From a virus (Duplodnaviria > Caudoviricetes), in the IMG/VR virus record IMGVR_UViG_3300028423_000363, positions 1 to 62,770 of that record: a DNA stretch of 62,770 nucleotides, one strand, 5' to 3'. This document shows, piece after piece, positions 2,636 to 62,745 of this stretch; within the stretch, counting starts at the first letter, position 1, and every line of letters begins with the position of its first letter. Both the position numbers and the translations under genes were made by a program. The notes beneath the pieces were generated by a model. That model had not been told where the DNA came from. It was given only the letters and a program-made list of their open reading frames with translations, and did not search any database.

Positions 2636-2710
2636 CATTTAAAGTGTTGTGTATATGAGTGTTATTAACTACTTTTGTCAAGTAAAATGATCAATAAACT
2701 TGACATTAAT

Positions 2711-2838
2711 AACGGATTACGGCTATGAAGCGTTGCCGAGTAAAACGCTTGAACTTTTAAATTATAAACAAAATGGATATACACCCGCAACACACAAATA
2801 TAGCACAGGGCAAAGGCAATGATTTTATAGCCGATGTT
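2711..2838. repeat. attC-like site (long loop containing the start of ORF 2773)
   Basis: AAC-GGATTA-CGGCTATGAAGCGTTGCC (2720-2737) ... GGCAATGATTTTATAGCCG (2815-2833)-AT-GTT. Confidence 0.7.
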
Positions 2839-3021
2839 ATAAACTGCCCTGATGAATTAGAGCCAGTTTTGGCACAAATAGAACATATAAACGATTTAGG
2901 TAAATCTAAATGGTACGAGGTAGTTTACTATGACGGGAACTGGCGTTCTTATAGTGGAAGCAATACTTTTGATGATGGTGAAAAGGTTTTAAAATGGAAA
3001 TACTGTAAGGGTTGTTTATAA
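2773..3021 (+). CDS. Cassette-encoded hypothetical protein spanning the crossover GTT in frame
   Basis: 82 aa. GTT 2836 is codon 22 (Val). The stop TAA lies within the closing TAAC core. Confidence 0.7.
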   Translation: MDIHPQHTNIAQGKGNDFIADVINCPDELEPVLAQIEHINDLGKSKWYEVVYYDGNWRSYSGSNTFDDGEKVLKWKYCKGCL

Positions 3022-3312
3022 CGTAAAAGTATAACAGTAGTAACAGAATATAAACTTTAAAATTAAAATAAAATGGCAAAACCAATTTTTATAGTAGAAT
3101 CACCAATTATGCAAACACAAGAAGAGTTTGTAAACACACAAAAAGTATTAGAAAATAAATTAAATGACTACCACGTTTTGATAGTACAAACCAATGTAGA
3201 TGATTTTAATTTTAAAGTTTTTTACGATAAAGACTTTACAGAAATTGAACTTAATGATTTAAGAAAATACATTAAAGAAAAATTAAAGTAGTTATTACTG
3301 TTATGCATTGTT
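3020..3312. repeat. attC-like site with a complete ORF in its loop
   Basis: AAC-GTAAAA-GTATAACAGTAGTAAC (3029-3044) ... GTTATTACTGTTATGC (3291-3306)-ATT-GTT. Arms are identical to those at 55275-55562. Confidence 0.75.
3073..3291 (+). CDS. Hypothetical protein inside the attC-like loop
   Basis: 72 aa with an A-rich leader. The stop TAG overlaps the first base of the right arm. Confidence 0.75.
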   Translation: MAKPIFIVESPIMQTQEEFVNTQKVLENKLNDYHVLIVQTNVDDFNFKVFYDKDFTEIELNDLRKYIKEKLK

Positions 3313-3359
3313 ACTTGCAGTGCGCCTATTAAGTGTAATTGTTTGGCGCATTGCTATGT

Positions 3360-3425
3360 AACATTTCGGCGATATGATTTGCGCCTTTATGGATTGAGTG
3401 ATTAGCGTAAATTATATTGCGTGTT
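3360..3425. repeat. attC-like site (66 bp)
   Basis: AAC-ATTTCG-GCGATATGATTTGCGC-20 nt loop-GCGTAAATTATATTGC-GT-GTT. Confidence 0.75.
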
Positions 3426-3460
3426 ATATGCCGATAGGGAACTGTAAAAATTAAGAAGAT

Positions 3461-3703
3461 ATGAAAACATTTAAAGTAAATACTGTGCAAGATATGATTG
3501 ACTGCACGAATGAAAACAACTTAGATAATTTTTTAGTAGATTTAAAAAAGATTATTGAAGCAGCTCATTATTTTAGAGAGTTAACTGATAATATGGCTGA
3601 GAAACAAAACATTTCTAAAAAATTAACGGAACTGAAAAGCAAAGGATTTGAATGGATTGACGATAGCAAACACGAAATAACTATCGAATTAAGCAGTAAG
3701 TAA
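3461..3703 (+). CDS. Cassette-encoded hypothetical protein
   Basis: 80 aa, between GTTATATGC (3423) and GCATATAAC (3720). Confidence 0.75.
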   Translation: MKTFKVNTVQDMIDCTNENNLDNFLVDLKKIIEAAHYFRELTDNMAEKQNISKKLTELKSKGFEWIDDSKHEITIELSSK

Positions 3704-3855
3704 TTTTTATTGCATATAACACGTGATAACATCATATATTGAACTAAAACATTATTAATCATGTAGTTACATAATATAAGTAGTTCGGAAGTGAACTTTT
3801 TATTTTTTAATTAAGTGATGAAGAGTTTGTTTTCGAACTACACTAAAATAAGATT

Positions 3856-30117: not shown

Positions 30118-31116
30118 TTATATTTCTAATCCGCCATCTGTGATTGTCCAACCTCTAGCAATTAAAGCGTTTCTTGCTGTTTGCCCTGCTGCGTTGTATT
30201 GTGAGTTACCACCATCAAAGGCTACGTTGTTGTTAGGGTTGTTTGCTTCTAAGTCTATCAATAATTGTGAGTAGCGTTCTGTGTTTATGGTGTTTTCTAA
30301 GAACATAGAACCGCCGTTAGTTAATGAAGGTAACTCCATCCCTGTTGGTAATGAAGTAAGGGAGTTATCCATAAACATAAAACGACCATCAGTCAACAAT
30401 GGCAAATCCATACCACTTGGTAACGATGTTAAATTATTGCCTAAAAACATAGAAATACCTTCAGTCAACAACGGTAACTCCATCCCTGTTGGTAATGAAG
30501 TTAAATTGTTTCGCACAAACATTTGTACACCTTCATTCAACAATGGCAACTCCATTCCTGCTGGTAATGATGTAATAGCATTATCTCTAAACATTCTACC
30601 AGCAACAATTAACAAAGGCATTTTCATATCGCTTGGTAATGAAGTAAGGGAGTTATCCATAAACATAAAACTTCCAATCTCTACAACTTCAAACCAAGCA
30701 CCACCACCTGCTATTTCTGATAAATTTGAGCATCCGAAAAACGCATTACTTTGATTAGGCTCATTAACTCCATACAATCCCCATTGAAGGACTTTAAGCA
30801 GTTTATTTTTATCTCCACCATCACTAAACGTTAACTTATCAAGCCCTGCTTCTTTTGGAATAACTCTTAACTCATATATACCTGCGCTAGGTAAGGTAAT
30901 TGTTTGCTCGTTAACTAAGTCGCTAAAACTTGCAACTAAGCTGTTATTTTGATAGGCTTCTACATCGTACTCGCCAACCGCACCTGTAAATTGGAATTGG
31001 TCTGCATTGCTTACCCCTGCGATAGATGTATCTACCTCAATAATGAAGTTAGGGTCGAATTTAGAATAAGACCGACCTGTTATATCAATACTGTTAGATA
31101 TCGACAATCCTACCAT
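30118..31116 (-). CDS. Leucine-rich-repeat (BspA-like) virion fibre, possibly a head fibre
   Basis: Five 24-aa repeats NxLTSLPxGMELPLLxxGxxMFxx; C-terminus ARNALIARGWTITDGG. Confidence 0.65.
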   Translation of the reverse strand: MVGLSISNSIDITGRSYSKFDPNFIIEVDTSIAGVSNADQFQFTGAVGEYDVEAYQNNSLVASFSDLVNEQTITLPSAGIYELRVIPKEAGLDKLTFSDGGDKNKLLKVLQWGLYGVNEPNQSNAFFGCSNLSEIAGGGAWFEVVEIGSFMFMDNSLTSLPSDMKMPLLIVAGRMFRDNAITSLPAGMELPLLNEGVQMFVRNNLTSLPTGMELPLLTEGISMFLGNNLTSLPSGMDLPLLTDGRFMFMDNSLTSLPTGMELPSLTNGGSMFLENTINTERYSQLLIDLEANNPNNNVAFDGGNSQYNAAGQTARNALIARGWTITDGGLEI

Positions 31117-53793: not shown

Positions 53794-54135
53794 GTGGCAA
53801 TAAAAAATAAAAAAATGACAGAAGCAGATAAAATATTAAATAAGCATTTAACTGATAATGAAGCTAAATATATAGCTGATAAAAGATTTCTTTACGACAG
53901 TTTGATAAACGCAATAAATGAAGCATTAGCTACATCTCGTGTTAGCAGTAGCTTATTAGAAATAACACTTGAAGAATGGGAACACACTTGTGACGATGGC
54001 TGCTGTTATTCTTACGGTGAAGATATATATCTAAATGGTGAGAAATTAGACGAGCAAAATGCTGAAGATAGTAGGAATGCATTAACAGCAGTACTTACAA
54101 GGTTAGGTTATGACGTTGAAATAAATTACCGCTAA
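53794..54135 (+). CDS. Hypothetical protein reading in frame into the first cassette of array 2
   Basis: GTT 53941 is an in-frame Val (ATSRVSSS); stop lies in GCTAAC. Likely start ATG 53815. Confidence 0.7.
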   Translation: MAIKNKKMTEADKILNKHLTDNEAKYIADKRFLYDSLINAINEALATSRVSSSLLEITLEEWEHTCDDGCCYSYGEDIYLNGEKLDEQNAEDSRNALTAVLTRLGYDVEINYR

Positions 54136-54200
54136 CTGGTGGCGTATAAGATTTGCGCCTTTTCAGCCGAGTAAGTTCAGCGTAAATTTTATGCGCTGTT
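54134..54200. repeat. attC-like site (67 bp)
   Basis: AAC-TGGTG-GCGTATAAGATTTGCGC-21 nt-GCGTAAATTTTATGCGC-T-GTT. Confidence 0.78.
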
Positions 54201-54249
54201 ATGCACTGGCACGGATTAATAAATAATAACTTAAATTCAACTTAATAAA

Positions 54250-54543
54250 ATGAAAAAGCCTACAACAGAGTGTTCAATTTCGGTACAAAAAAAATCAGAA
54301 ATAACTCGTGTATTTTTAGAAAGTCAAGGATGGAAATTGATTGAAGAAAAACCACTATTTGAATCTTTTGAGCATACTAAAAATCCTTACTTAAAATGCT
54401 CTATTGGATTGTACGGTGGTTTTTCTGTAGTAGAATTACACTGGTGCAACAAAACGCCTGAAAGAGAATTTTCGACAATCAATAACGAACTAACTATTAA
54501 TGATTATCACACAATCATTCGCCTGTTAAATGTACGGGTGTAG
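54250..54543 (+). CDS. Cassette-encoded hypothetical protein
   Basis: 97 aa, between GTTATGCACTGGCAC and GTGCTTGTGCATAAC. Confidence 0.75.
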   Translation: MKKPTTECSISVQKKSEITRVFLESQGWKLIEEKPLFESFEHTKNPYLKCSIGLYGGFSVVELHWCNKTPEREFSTINNELTINDYHTIIRLLNVRV

Positions 54544-54554
54544 TGCTTGTGCAT

Positions 54555-54620
54555 AACATTCCAGTGCTATGAAAAGTGCCTTTAGGGAATAAGTGATTAG
54601 CATTTTTTATAGCACGTGTT
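54555..54620. repeat. attC-like site (66 bp)
   Basis: AAC-ATTCCA-GTGCTATGAAAAGTGC-20 nt-GCATTTTTTATAGCAC-GT-GTT. Confidence 0.78.
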
Positions 54621-54667
54621 AGCTGACGAAGTGAACAGTAAAATATTAATGGATTAAAAAAAGAATT

Positions 54668-55258
54668 ATGAAAAATTGGACTGGAAATAAAAACAGTATT
54701 TATAAAACTTTAGGTTCGAGTAACCACACAGAAAAAAGCCGTGAGCAACATGACTATTATGCAACCGACCCAAAAGCAGCCGAATTACTTTTGGAATTAG
54801 AAAGCTTTGAAAATGTATTAGAGCCTTCTTGTGGTGAGGGACATTTAAGTAAAGTTTTTGTTGATGCAGGAATTAATGTTACAAGTAGCGACTTAATTGA
54901 TAGAAATTACGGAACTCAAAAAAGTTTTTTTGACTACGAAAAATGGAATGGCGATATAGTTACAAACCCACCTTACAAATATGGGCTTGAATTTGTAGAA
55001 CACGCTTTGAAAATAATACCTAATGGAAATAAAGTTGCGATGTTTTTAAAACTGCAATTTCTTGAAGGTAAGAAACGAAAAAAACTTTTTGTAGATAAAC
55101 CACCTAAAAAACTTTACGTATCTAGTAGTAGGCTGCTTTGTGCAAAAAACGCTGATTTTGAAGGTATGCGAAAAGGTGGCGGTAGTGCCGTTGCTTACGG
55201 CTGGTTTGTTTGGCAAAAAGGTTTTAAAGGACTTTCGCAAATAGAATGGTTTAATTAA
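54668..55258 (+). CDS. Cassette-borne small DNA amino-methyltransferase (probably N6-adenine)
   Basis: DYYATDP, SAM-binding LEPSCGEG, catalytic VTNPPY. Confidence 0.8.
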   Translation: MKNWTGNKNSIYKTLGSSNHTEKSREQHDYYATDPKAAELLLELESFENVLEPSCGEGHLSKVFVDAGINVTSSDLIDRNYGTQKSFFDYEKWNGDIVTNPPYKYGLEFVEHALKIIPNGNKVAMFLKLQFLEGKKRKKLFVDKPPKKLYVSSSRLLCAKNADFEGMRKGGGSAVAYGWFVWQKGFKGLSQIEWFN

Positions 55259-55274
55259 TATTTTATTGCAGGCT

Positions 55275-55562
55275 AACGTAAAAGTATAACAGTAGTAACG
55301 GAAATATTAATAACTAAATTTTTTAAATATGAAAGCAAAACTAATATATAATGGTGAAGAAACTGCAGAAACACAAGAAGTTGATTTACCACAAATACCA
55401 AGGGTAGGCGACGGTTTTTGTGTTTTAATAGACAATGTAGAAAAGCGAGTATTTGCTTCTTGTGTGGTGGAAAGCATAGACTGGTGGATTGAAAATGGTA
55501 AACTGCGAAATGTAGAAATTTATTTAAAAGACGAAGAATAGTTATTACTGTTATGCATTGTT
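55275..55562. repeat. attC-like site with a complete ORF in its loop
   Basis: Arms identical to 3020-3312. Confidence 0.75.
55329..55541 (+). CDS. Hypothetical protein inside the attC-like loop
   Basis: 70 aa (PQIPRVGD motif); stop TAG overlaps the right arm. Confidence 0.75.
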   Translation: MKAKLIYNGEETAETQEVDLPQIPRVGDGFCVLIDNVEKRVFASCVVESIDWWIENGKLRNVEIYLKDEE

Positions 55563-55670
55563 ATATATCTGGTGGTGGCTAGTAAGACCTTAGCGGATGA
55601 TGAATGCACTTGATGCGATTCTGGTTTGGCGAAAATATGGGTTTATTAACCTGTGCCACCACTTGTATAT

Positions 55671-55734
55671 AACTGGTGGCGTATAAAATAAGCCAGCGCA
55701 ACACTGGTTAATTCGGCTTGTTTTATGCGCTGTT
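55671..55734. repeat. attC-like site (64 bp)
   Basis: AAC-TGGTG-GCGTATAAAATAAGCC-20 nt-GGCTTGTTTTATGCGC-T-GTT. Confidence 0.78.
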
Positions 55735-55796
55735 GTAAAGCGTTTTTCAATTCAAATTTTTTAAATTCAAATATTAATCAATTAAATAAAATAAAA

Positions 55797-56369
55797 ATGA
55801 AAAAATTATTAAAATCATTAGACAAAAAAATATCAGTTAGACAAGCTGGTACAGGAACAATTTATGTTTCTTTTGACGGTAAAAAAATAAGAATTGCTAA
55901 TCATGAACCTAATAGATCAATGAAAAGACAAAGAGGTTCAGCAGATCTTGAAATCTACACTCACGATTTAGTAGGTAAAGAAATAAATTCTAAGTATGAT
56001 GTTGTAGAAAAAGTAGCAGATTTTTTAAATATTGAAATTAAAGGACCTACAAAGTCAGCTATTACACGTTTTAGAAATAAAGAATTAGAAAAATCAAAAA
56101 AACTTGCTAGAATAGAAATTGAAAATGAAAAGGAAATGAAAGAAATACAAGATCGAATTAAAAAGTTTTATTCTAAAATAAAAAAGCTGACTAAAGGCAA
56201 AGAAAAAGAACTTAAACAATTATATGCTGAAGCTGAAAAATATGGCGATTTAGGCTCTAATGGATCAAAAAGAAGAAAAAGACGTACATCATATTTTAAA
56301 AGAGAATTCAAAAATAGGTTTGGAATAGAAGCAACGCCTTCAGATGTTAAAAATGCAATTAATTCTTAA
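55797..56369 (+). CDS. Cassette-encoded basic hypothetical protein
   Basis: Likely start MKKLL at 55797; TGTIYV...KIRIANH motif; flanked by GTTGTAAAGC/GCTTTACAAC. Confidence 0.7.
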   Translation: MKKLLKSLDKKISVRQAGTGTIYVSFDGKKIRIANHEPNRSMKRQRGSADLEIYTHDLVGKEINSKYDVVEKVADFLNIEIKGPTKSAITRFRNKELEKSKKLARIEIENEKEMKEIQDRIKKFYSKIKKLTKGKEKELKQLYAEAEKYGDLGSNGSKRRKRRTSYFKREFKNRFGIEATPSDVKNAINS

Positions 56370-56413
56370 TGCTTTACAACACGTAATAACAACACATAAA
56401 CACTTAAACCCTT

Positions 56414-56686
56414 ATGAATACTACAAAACAAAAAAATAAAGAGTTTGAAAATGAACTATTTTATGATAGTTTCAAAACAAAAAAGTTAAGAAGTGAACTA
56501 TCAAAGGAAGCTAAGACTGCTATTGAAATCAGGAAAGAAAACACAACTCAAAAAGATGTAGCCGATACCTTAGAAATACCACTAACAAAGATTAAACAAG
56601 TTGAGAATGGCACTTGCAAAGATATAGATGCTATTCTTAATTACATAGGTTATCTCAATTACAAATCAATAATAATTATTAACTGA
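56414..56686 (+). CDS. XRE-family HTH protein
   Basis: TQKDVADTLEIPLTKIKQVENG. Confidence 0.7.
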   Translation: MNTTKQKNKEFENELFYDSFKTKKLRSELSKEAKTAIEIRKENTTQKDVADTLEIPLTKIKQVENGTCKDIDAILNYIGYLNYKSIIIIN

Positions 56687-61989: not shown

Positions 61990-62745
61990 ATGTATGTATA
62001 CCTTATGAAATGTTCTATTTATTATAAAATAGGATATTCAAAAAATCCAAAAAACAGACTAAAAACTGTAAAAACACACAATCCTTTAGATGTTAAACTT
62101 CTCGCGACGTTAAAAACTAAAAAAAGTAGGAGTTTAGAAAAAGAACTTCACAATTTGTTTTTGCCGAAAAACTCAAGGAGAGAATGGTTTGAGTTGCATT
62201 ATCAAGATTTATTAAAGTTGAAGATTGATTATGGATTTAATTTTCTTGAACCAATAGAATACATTACCGACGACTACAAAGAAGACGAATATACTTTAGG
62301 TAAGATAAAGGAGATAAGAATTGATAACGCTAAATTAGACGCTCTTAAAACATATTTCGAGAATTTATTCGAAACGGAAATAGTCGATAACATACCTATG
62401 AAAAAATGTTCTTTGAACTTTGATTCAGAGTTAATAATAAAAGCTATTGATAATCTTTTTGAACAAGGTAAGGATGCTGATACCTGTTATAAACTTATAT
62501 ACACGGTTTGCTGCAATCTTCAGGAATCAAAAGAAAATCCAGGCAGGTATTTTGCGAAAGTAGTTAGAGCTTTGCTTTACAAGCAATATGGATATGAGTT
62601 AATGGATAAGGATTTTGACTACATATCTAATAATTTCAACAAAGACTCAAATGTTAGTAAAGCTATAAGGGAGATCAACTCAAGAAAGTTTTATCTAAAT
62701 ATTACTGAGTTTCTTATTTTTATTAATGATAAATTTATTATATAA
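61990..62745 (+). CDS. T5orf172/GIY-YIG-like domain protein
   Basis: YVYLM....YKIGYSKNP..RL......NP...LEKELH..F......EWFEL. Confidence 0.8.
   Translation: MYVYLMKCSIYYKIGYSKNPKNRLKTVKTHNPLDVKLLATLKTKKSRSLEKELHNLFLPKNSRREWFELHYQDLLKLKIDYGFNFLEPIEYITDDYKEDEYTLGKIKEIRIDNAKLDALKTYFENLFETEIVDNIPMKKCSLNFDSELIIKAIDNLFEQGKDADTCYKLIYTVCCNLQESKENPGRYFAKVVRALLYKQYGYELMDKDFDYISNNFNKDSNVSKAIREINSRKFYLNITEFLIFINDKFII

Follow-up and report, generated by a model that had tools for sequence, protein, structure and literature searches.

The attI site of classical integrons is a non-folding site at a fixed end of the cassette array, adjacent to the recombinase gene in complete platforms, and exchange takes place at its GTT/AAC core with strand-specific hairpins as partners (the layout of attI1 is given in the legend to Figure 4 of Qi et al. 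2023, PMC9892861). Cassette clusters that lack an integrase, the CALINs, are a second relevant class. According to Qi et al., CALINs occur in virulent phages, one of which infects Polaribacter and has methyltransferase cassettes, and the CALIN in the Shewanella prophage M16-3 is reported to keep its own attI at the start; these clusters were found with classical attC models and tested with IntI1. A third class is attG, described by Loot et al. (bioRxiv 10.1101/2022.09.11.507474) as IntI-mediated insertion of cassettes outside attI and attC, at sites that are numerous and unlike the att sites. Finally, the cultured Polaribacter phages Freya_1-10 (MT732463-72) and Cellulophaga phage Ingeline (MT732435), our comparators, carry integrases that the available part of their isolation paper (PMC8776804) takes as a sign of a temperate lifestyle, and the words 'cassette' and 'integron' are absent from that part of the text. 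Our search of the literature found no description of a recombinase-linked phage platform of the kind discussed below, or of its docking site.

The DNA studied here (the window) spans an entire IMG/VR virus record; it is 62,770 bases long and has 32% G+C. The primase/helicase shares 62.5% identity with its counterpart in Tenacibaculum phage JQ and is related to those of Cellulophaga and Flavobacterium phages, which makes this a Flavobacteriaceae phage. Erf, ThyX, an exonuclease and a GroEL-like protein are also encoded. No tyrosine recombinase was detected by PF00589 at E values up to 10 in the whole window, and a tblastn search of the window for recombinase remnants with five recombinases gave a best E value of 0.72. 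Repeats are found elsewhere in the genome: a leader, AAATCTTAGACAAATG, recurs with variants between 49366 and 52278 ahead of several small early ORFs, and four to five tandem 72-nt repeats lie at 30297-30656 inside a minus-strand ORF. An ORF at 61990-62745 contains a T5orf172/MUG113 (GIY-YIG-like) domain and may code for a homing endonuclease; on a circular reading of the record it would lie about 3.5 kb away from array 1.

The window contains two cassette arrays (Table 1). In both, ORF units bounded by GTT/AAC and with self-complementary ends alternate with hairpins bounded by TAAC/GTTA. Array 1 is located downstream of the primase/helicase gene, and its left border is approximate; in array 2 the ORF 54668-55258 is a DNA methyltransferase. 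The junctions AACGTAAAAGTATAACAGTAGTAAC and TAGTTATTACTGTTATGCATTGTTA are common to both arrays but flank different ORFs in each, and the two copies of AACGTAAAAGTATAACAGTAGTAAC are identical at 18 of 18 positions past the AAC.

Table 1. Coordinates of the two cassette arrays, their components and their terminal motifs in the window.
Feature	Positions	Strand	Description
Array 1	2636-3720	+	Three small ORFs (2773-3021, 3073-3291, 3461-3703) between AAC/GTT cores
Array 1, last cassette	3423-3720	+	GTTATATGC at 3423 paired with GCATATAAC ending at 3720
Array 1, terminal motif	3718-3738	+	AACACGTGATAACATCATATA; docking-like site, weaker copy
Array 2	54137-56380	+	ORFs 54250-54543, 54668-55258, 55329-55541 and 55797-56369 between AAC/GTT cores
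Array 2, last cassette	55732-56380	+	GTTGTAAAGC at 55732 paired with GCTTTACAAC ending at 56380
Array 2, terminal 21-mer	56378-56398	+	AACACGTAATAACAACACATA
Array 2, terminal motif and 15 bases to the next ATG	56378-56413	+	AACACGTAATAACAACACATAAACACTTAAACCCTT; docking-like site, stronger copy
Junction AACGTAAAAGTATAACAGTAGTAAC	3020-3044; identical copy 55275-55299	+	Left arm of a split hairpin with an ORF in the loop
Junction TAGTTATTACTGTTATGCATTGTTA	3289-3313; identical copy 55539-55563	+	Right arm of a split hairpin
Hairpin unit A1	3309-3363	+	No ORF; bounded by GTTA and TAAC; counterpart A2 at 55560-55673
Hairpin B1	3356-3429	+	TAAC, 5-6 unpaired bases, 16-bp stem, loop, stem, GTTA
Hairpin B2	54130-54204	+	Marks the left edge of array 2; the TAA of the hairpin also serves as stop codon of ORF 53794-54135
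Hairpin B3	54551-54624	+	
Hairpin B4	55667-55738	+	Adjoins the last cassette of array 2 on its left side

The four B hairpins can be aligned, with compensatory changes in 9 of the 16 stem pairs and with two G:U pairs that are fixed on the plus strand. They fold better than shuffled sequences, at -25 to -27 kcal/mol on the plus strand versus -8 to -16 kcal/mol on the minus strand (-26.5 versus -8.3 kcal/mol for B1). No Rfam family was found. A covariance model built from these four hairpins, R1, retrieves only its own sources from the phage genome, and matched 9 of 151 sampled Flavobacteriaceae genomes, with arrays in one of them (G028). The bacterial array L099 has five R1 hairpins on the plus strand, then a last cassette at the 3' side (GTTATGTCTT to AAGACATAAC), and beyond it, 3' of the hairpins in the R1 sense, the gene for a 409-aa tyrosine recombinase (PF00589, 8.8e-40; 210 bits with TIGR02249, the integron-integrase model, for which the cut-off is 265). 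The genes of L099 are on the strand opposite to the folding strand, therefore the conserved wobble pairs are not a feature of mRNA. Among 67 recombinase-bearing viral loci that encode relatives of the 409-aa enzyme, R1 has 7 matches in five loci only (L112, L111, L109, L102 and L152), all of them on the recombinase strand and upstream of the gene. With L099 included, all six arrays whose polarity can be read have the recombinase on the 3' side of the folding strand. By the same polarity the terminal motifs of the window are at the end that corresponds to the recombinase end, where they start at the AAC of the last cassette.

Compared with classical integrons, the likeness includes a non-folding site at the array boundary that corresponds to the recombinase-proximal end, an exchange point at a GTT/AAC core, and strand-specific hairpins as the partner sites. 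There are also differences. Firstly, the window has no intI, and no gene for an integron integrase with its extra domain adjoins the arrays. Secondly, the enzymes linked to phage platforms are small (263-278 aa) and Xer-like, and even the 409-aa bacterial relative scores below the integron-integrase cut-off. Thirdly, the recombinase gene is downstream of the phage cassettes and co-directional with them, and the cassette genes are on the folding strand. The arrays may be a CALIN: they hold four covarying, strand-specific TAAC/GTTA hairpins, as described by the R1 model, and no recombinase is present. They share with the published CALINs the state of integrase-less cassette clusters in a phage, and are set apart from them by their site family, docking core and linked enzymes.

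The first-pass annotation of this DNA had reported a 21-nt motif at the end of both arrays that follows the last AAC, does not form a hairpin and agrees at 18 of 21 positions between the copies. All of this holds: both 21-mers are in place, the first three bases of each are the AAC at which the last cassette's inverted repeat ends, and folding energies compared with shuffles give z values of -0.63 in array 1 and -0.49 in array 2. A degenerate version of the 21-mer with up to 3 mismatches, a pattern drawn from the same data, matches the genome twice, i.e. at the two terminal motifs, versus 0.04 matches expected. Among 999,769 pairs of AAC-anchored 18-mers on the plus strand, 12 pairs agree at 15 or more of 18 positions. 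Three of these link array regions, namely the motif pair, the identical internal junction and the hairpins B2/B4. The simpler pattern AACAC, 3-4 bases, ATAAC occurs four times in the window, against 0.485 expected.

Beyond the motif the two arrays continue differently. In array 2 the ATG of an HTH-type ORF follows 15 nt after the motif end, and in array 1 there are about 117-118 non-coding nt with an inverted repeat (3780-3841; 31-nt arms, 71% complementary, no spacer) before the next ORF. The short distance in array 2 could point to an expression signal, in the form of a promoter, an operator or a leader that serves the genes following each array, and it is also true that other early genes of this phage have a repeated leader and that ATAAACACTTAA stands before the recombinase ATG in L109 as well, a 12-nt identity with the L109 leader that is probably generic. 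Yet the next ORF of array 1 starts 118 nt beyond the motif, and the motif has no further occurrence in the 62.8-kb genome beyond the two array ends. No sigma-70-like site on the plus strand overlaps the motifs, with counts at chance in a scan that excludes Bacteroidota promoters, and promoter-like and terminator-like sites near the motifs are likewise at chance level. We consider a role in expression very improbable.

It is instructive to compare these array ends with the cultured phages. Freya_1, 5, 8 and 10 are 100% identical in the DNA that they have in common. All variation among them comes from three groups of small ORFs that stand immediately upstream of the integrase, the blocks X (845 nt), Y (902 nt) and Z (3195 nt). 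The four genomes hold, respectively, none of the blocks, X and Y, X and Z, or all three. All four keep one and the same site before the integrase ATG, AACACCCCTATAACAACAATAAGTATTTAACCCAATAAAATCAATAGAT, starting with AACACCCCTATAAC; the bases to the left of its AAC vary, and every block border is an AAC. Two of the three block differences abut the integrase-proximal site and one is internal, and the differences are compatible with gain and with loss alike. Ingeline, whose integrase is 40% identical to that of Freya, has the site AACACCCACATAACTCCACCCACACAAAAACCCTTTAAAAACAAGCAAG (start AACACCCACATAAC) 49 nt before the integrase ATG, which is the same distance as in Freya. The core AACAC, 3-4 bases, ATAAC is found at the junction AAC in both motifs of the window, in Freya_1, 5, 8 and 10, and in Ingeline. 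Note that its spacer is 3 bases long in the array 1 motif, and that the window motifs have a spacer one base shorter than Freya and Ingeline.

In order to judge this similarity, the two sites were aligned from their AAC to all 2696 AAC anchors of the window. Over 36 nt, position 56378 ranks first with the Freya site and first with the Ingeline site, and position 3718 ranks 23rd and 173rd, respectively. With the reversed sequence as a control, and with two other site types, the ranks at the lengths tested ranged from 202 to 2552. Local alignment of the Freya site to the window with no anchor produced higher chance scores elsewhere and did not single out the motifs. Because the unanchored alignment is non-specific, the likeness to a docking site rests on the fixed position together with the similarity, and only array 2 makes a strong case. 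In a viral scan with the Freya and Ingeline alignment, Ingeline itself and distant proteins were the only matches, which leaves just two independent examples of this site type linked to an enzyme. The window resembles these phages in that the core is at the AAC of the last cassette, the upstream cassette genes are co-directional, and natural variants occur at the AAC; the difference is that Freya and Ingeline encode a recombinase 49 nt downstream of the AAC, and the window has none.

Three additional observations concern this site type and its surroundings. On the minus strand, directly past the primase stop at 2636-2663, the sequence AACACTCATATACACAACACTTTAAATG scores among the top 3 of the 2696 anchors when the first 21-24 nt of the Freya site are the query, and array 1 may have here, at its left border, a docking-like site in inverted orientation. 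Ingeline_1 (L235, 3090-3125) has a perfect 12-bp stem, with ATTACGTGTTAG paired with CTAACACGTAAT, that holds AACACGTAAT, the first 10 bases of the array 2 motif. In the Polaribacter phages Danklef_1 and Danklef_5 (L233, L234) the integrase is cut to an annotated ORF of 132 nt, with tblastn matches to residues 96-271 of the Freya enzyme only; the Danklef array continues where Freya has its docking site, and record lengths vary by as much as 991 nt.

The occurrence of AACACGTAAT within a hairpin stem agrees with another reading. In it, an older, outer cassette has its left end in GTTATTACTGTT at 3291 and 55541 and its right end in the opening 13 bases of the motif, which consist of two AAC boxes spaced 7 bases apart; the motif would then be a cassette part and not a docking site. 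Indeed GTTATTACTGTT, which is contained in the junction TAGTTATTACTGTTATGCATTGTTA, is close to the reverse complement of these 13 bases, GTTATTAC at 55541 can be paired with GTAATAAC ending at 56390, and the internal left arm ATAACAGTAGTAAC resembles the start of the motif. Two AAC boxes followed by AYATA are found at 3033, 3718, 4026 and 56378. However, the similarity to Freya and Ingeline spans 36 nt and extends past the 13 bases, GTTATTACT is already paired with AGTAGTAAC on the left, and phages related to this one (see below) break at the first AAC, while the bases from ACGT on stay with the backbone. We therefore regard a cassette-end repeat as improbable.

Natural variation at array 2 was followed in four runs (X1-X4) of one marine plankton study, with contigs that are 88-95% like the backbone. 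Two contigs start exactly at 56378 (X1 record 7 and X4 record 28). In X2 record 13, 168 unlike bases ending in ATTTAGAAGCACAGAAGTAGTATTAATGGT are followed by a match to 56378-56565, and a second X2 contig is alike from 56375 and has different bases before, ending in ATTGCAAGAAGGTGGTTATTTTTAATTGCG. Hence at least two other sequences abut the same array 2 motif in relatives, and from these other left neighbours at the same AAC it follows that exchange at this junction occurred within the 88-95% lineage. Contigs also match up to the left border of array 2, at 54136, and are unlike thereafter (832 bases in X4 record 26 and 64 in X2 record 11), and loose ends are found at the internal cores 55273, 55552 and 55673. 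Joints from 55302-55304 to 55539 and from 54621 to 55306, which have sides of fewer than 30 letters, are left out of this count, and the ORFs 54250-54543 and 55797-56369 are almost uncovered by contigs, which is not evidence that the relatives lack them. Since break points are also present at the left border and at internal cores, exchange is not confined to the motif end. The first-pass annotation had proposed that the right-most cassettes are the newest and had suggested examining whether cassette turnover is polarised toward this end. The contigs gave no evidence for the former, and their breaks are spread over the motif end, the opposite border and the interior of array 2. In another lineage, L198 and L200 (61-63% relatives) are alike up to a GTT about 330 nt past the primase stop and then continue with different genes, which looks like a break point of the cassette type.

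The contigs also bear on the possibility that the motif is a dead relic, i.e. the leftover of a recombinase-bearing platform or of a duplicated array end, a mere flank with no role in recombination. Several features agree with this: neither a recombinase nor a remnant is present in the phage, the motif copies differ at 3 of 21 positions while the internal junctions common to both arrays are identical at 25 of 25, the spacer of the core is shorter than in Freya and Ingeline, and the Danklef phages show that such platforms decay. On the other hand, a relic does not sit easily with at least two other sequences directly to the left of the same AAC in relatives, where the exchange falls within the 88-95% lineage. 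We think it unlikely, if less so than the readings as a cassette end or an expression signal.

Docking sites of other types accompany other recombinases. Relatives of the 409-aa enzyme are present in 161 of 401 sampled Flavobacteriaceae genomes (E up to 1e-60), and in 29 of 30 fetched loci (L167-L196) a conserved site of about 55 nt follows the recombinase stop, with the elements TTATCC, GGATAA, ATATAAC, two bases and GTT; the cassettes start at its GTT. The recombinase of about 400 aa and its conserved site are a widespread chromosomal integron-like platform. A profile of the bacterial site matched the window best at 3673-3724 with an E value of 0.16 and left array 2 unmatched, and in the anchored comparison the window motifs rank between 755 and 2040. 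A second type, with AAC, about 4 bases and ATATGTA some 60 nt before the recombinase ATG, is found in 15 of 62 viral loci; we refer to it by the sequence TACTATATGTA. The recombinases of this L109/L111 clade have about 277 aa. The nhmmer profile of its 15 sites has no match at either window motif, whose anchored ranks are 552-2552. The type of the docking site tracks the recombinase clade, and identity between clades is 28-40%. The window motifs match neither the bacterial nor the TACTATATGTA-type family. A resemblance of the second half of the motif to ATATGTA was also considered and rejected, as the corresponding regular expression is at chance level in the window. A metagenome phage contig (L221, 2540-3000) has a single hairpin and a cassette, ends in the docking motif TACCTATATGT, which is of this second type, and has no recombinase gene after it.

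Counterparts of the window elements are rare elsewhere. The first-pass annotation had suggested looking for the motif at array ends of other phages and next to host recombinase genes, and the viral and genome scans did not find it there. The exact 16-mer of the motif has 42 matches in viral contigs, all in coding or unrelated contexts and none in an array; the 21-mer has 2 matches in genomes, again none in an array, and the one in Ochrovirga is inside a 356-aa ORF. The scan with the 22-nt shared junction returned 0 matches, and the one with the 16-nt hairpin arm 10 stretches, none of them hairpin-like. Five relatives of the methyltransferase lie outside hairpin arrays, with no recombinase in their records, and the relatives of the primase (up to 63% identity) have no motif and almost no R1 hairpins. 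For the gene that follows array 2 on the right, a single relative was found, which is 29% identical.

Taking these data together, we interpret the motif as an orphan docking site, i.e. a half-site in the position of attI, of the Freya/Ingeline type and belonging to a phage-borne integron-like cassette system; we give this interpretation an even chance of being right. The motif stands in the position and the polarity of such a site, is similar to two integrase-proximal sites, and coincides with natural break points at AAC. The attI-like entry site proposed in the first-pass annotation is to this extent supported, by the recombinase-end polarity, the core shared with Freya and Ingeline, the Freya block borders and the contig breaks at 56378. 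The proposal is weakened by the fact that the phage has no recombinase and that the scans found the motif at no other array end. Binding of a recombinase to the motif, its use as duplex DNA and continuing insertion in this phage would be consequences that we infer. The attG route is alike in that cassettes enter outside the classical att sites, and it would explain how an array was seeded in a phage backbone; the window, however, has two loci with a common motif (18/21) that resembles enzyme-linked sites.

The mechanism that we propose is as follows. The arrays would be rows of cassettes joined at AAC/GTT cores, with hairpin sites that fold on the plus strand. In related platforms the gene of a small Xer-like tyrosine recombinase stands just past the last AAC of the folding strand, and the conserved, non-folding stretch between the two would be the point where blocks of cassettes are gained or lost. 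The present phage keeps a stretch of the Freya/Ingeline type at both array ends, without the recombinase. As the phage has no recombinase, any exchange would depend on an enzyme acting in trans, whether from the host, from a prophage or from a second phage infecting the same cell. A wider and more tentative hypothesis, which we hold at clearly less than even confidence, is that recombinase-less flavobacterial phages keep working docking sites into which cassettes are loaded in trans by the Xer-like recombinases of Freya/Ingeline-like phages or prophages. This would amount to a shared marine market of cassettes, with at least three site families that co-evolve with three recombinase clades, and with two entry points possible per phage.

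The Freya isolates provide a cultured system for cassette gain and loss beside a small Xer-like recombinase, and the link between clade and site type gives three matched enzyme-site pairs that can be compared with IntI and attI of integrons. Should the motif prove to be a working docking site, entry points in uncultured genomes would be marked by the core AACAC, 3-4 bases, ATAAC, and the capture of accessory genes by marine phages would need no recombinase of their own.
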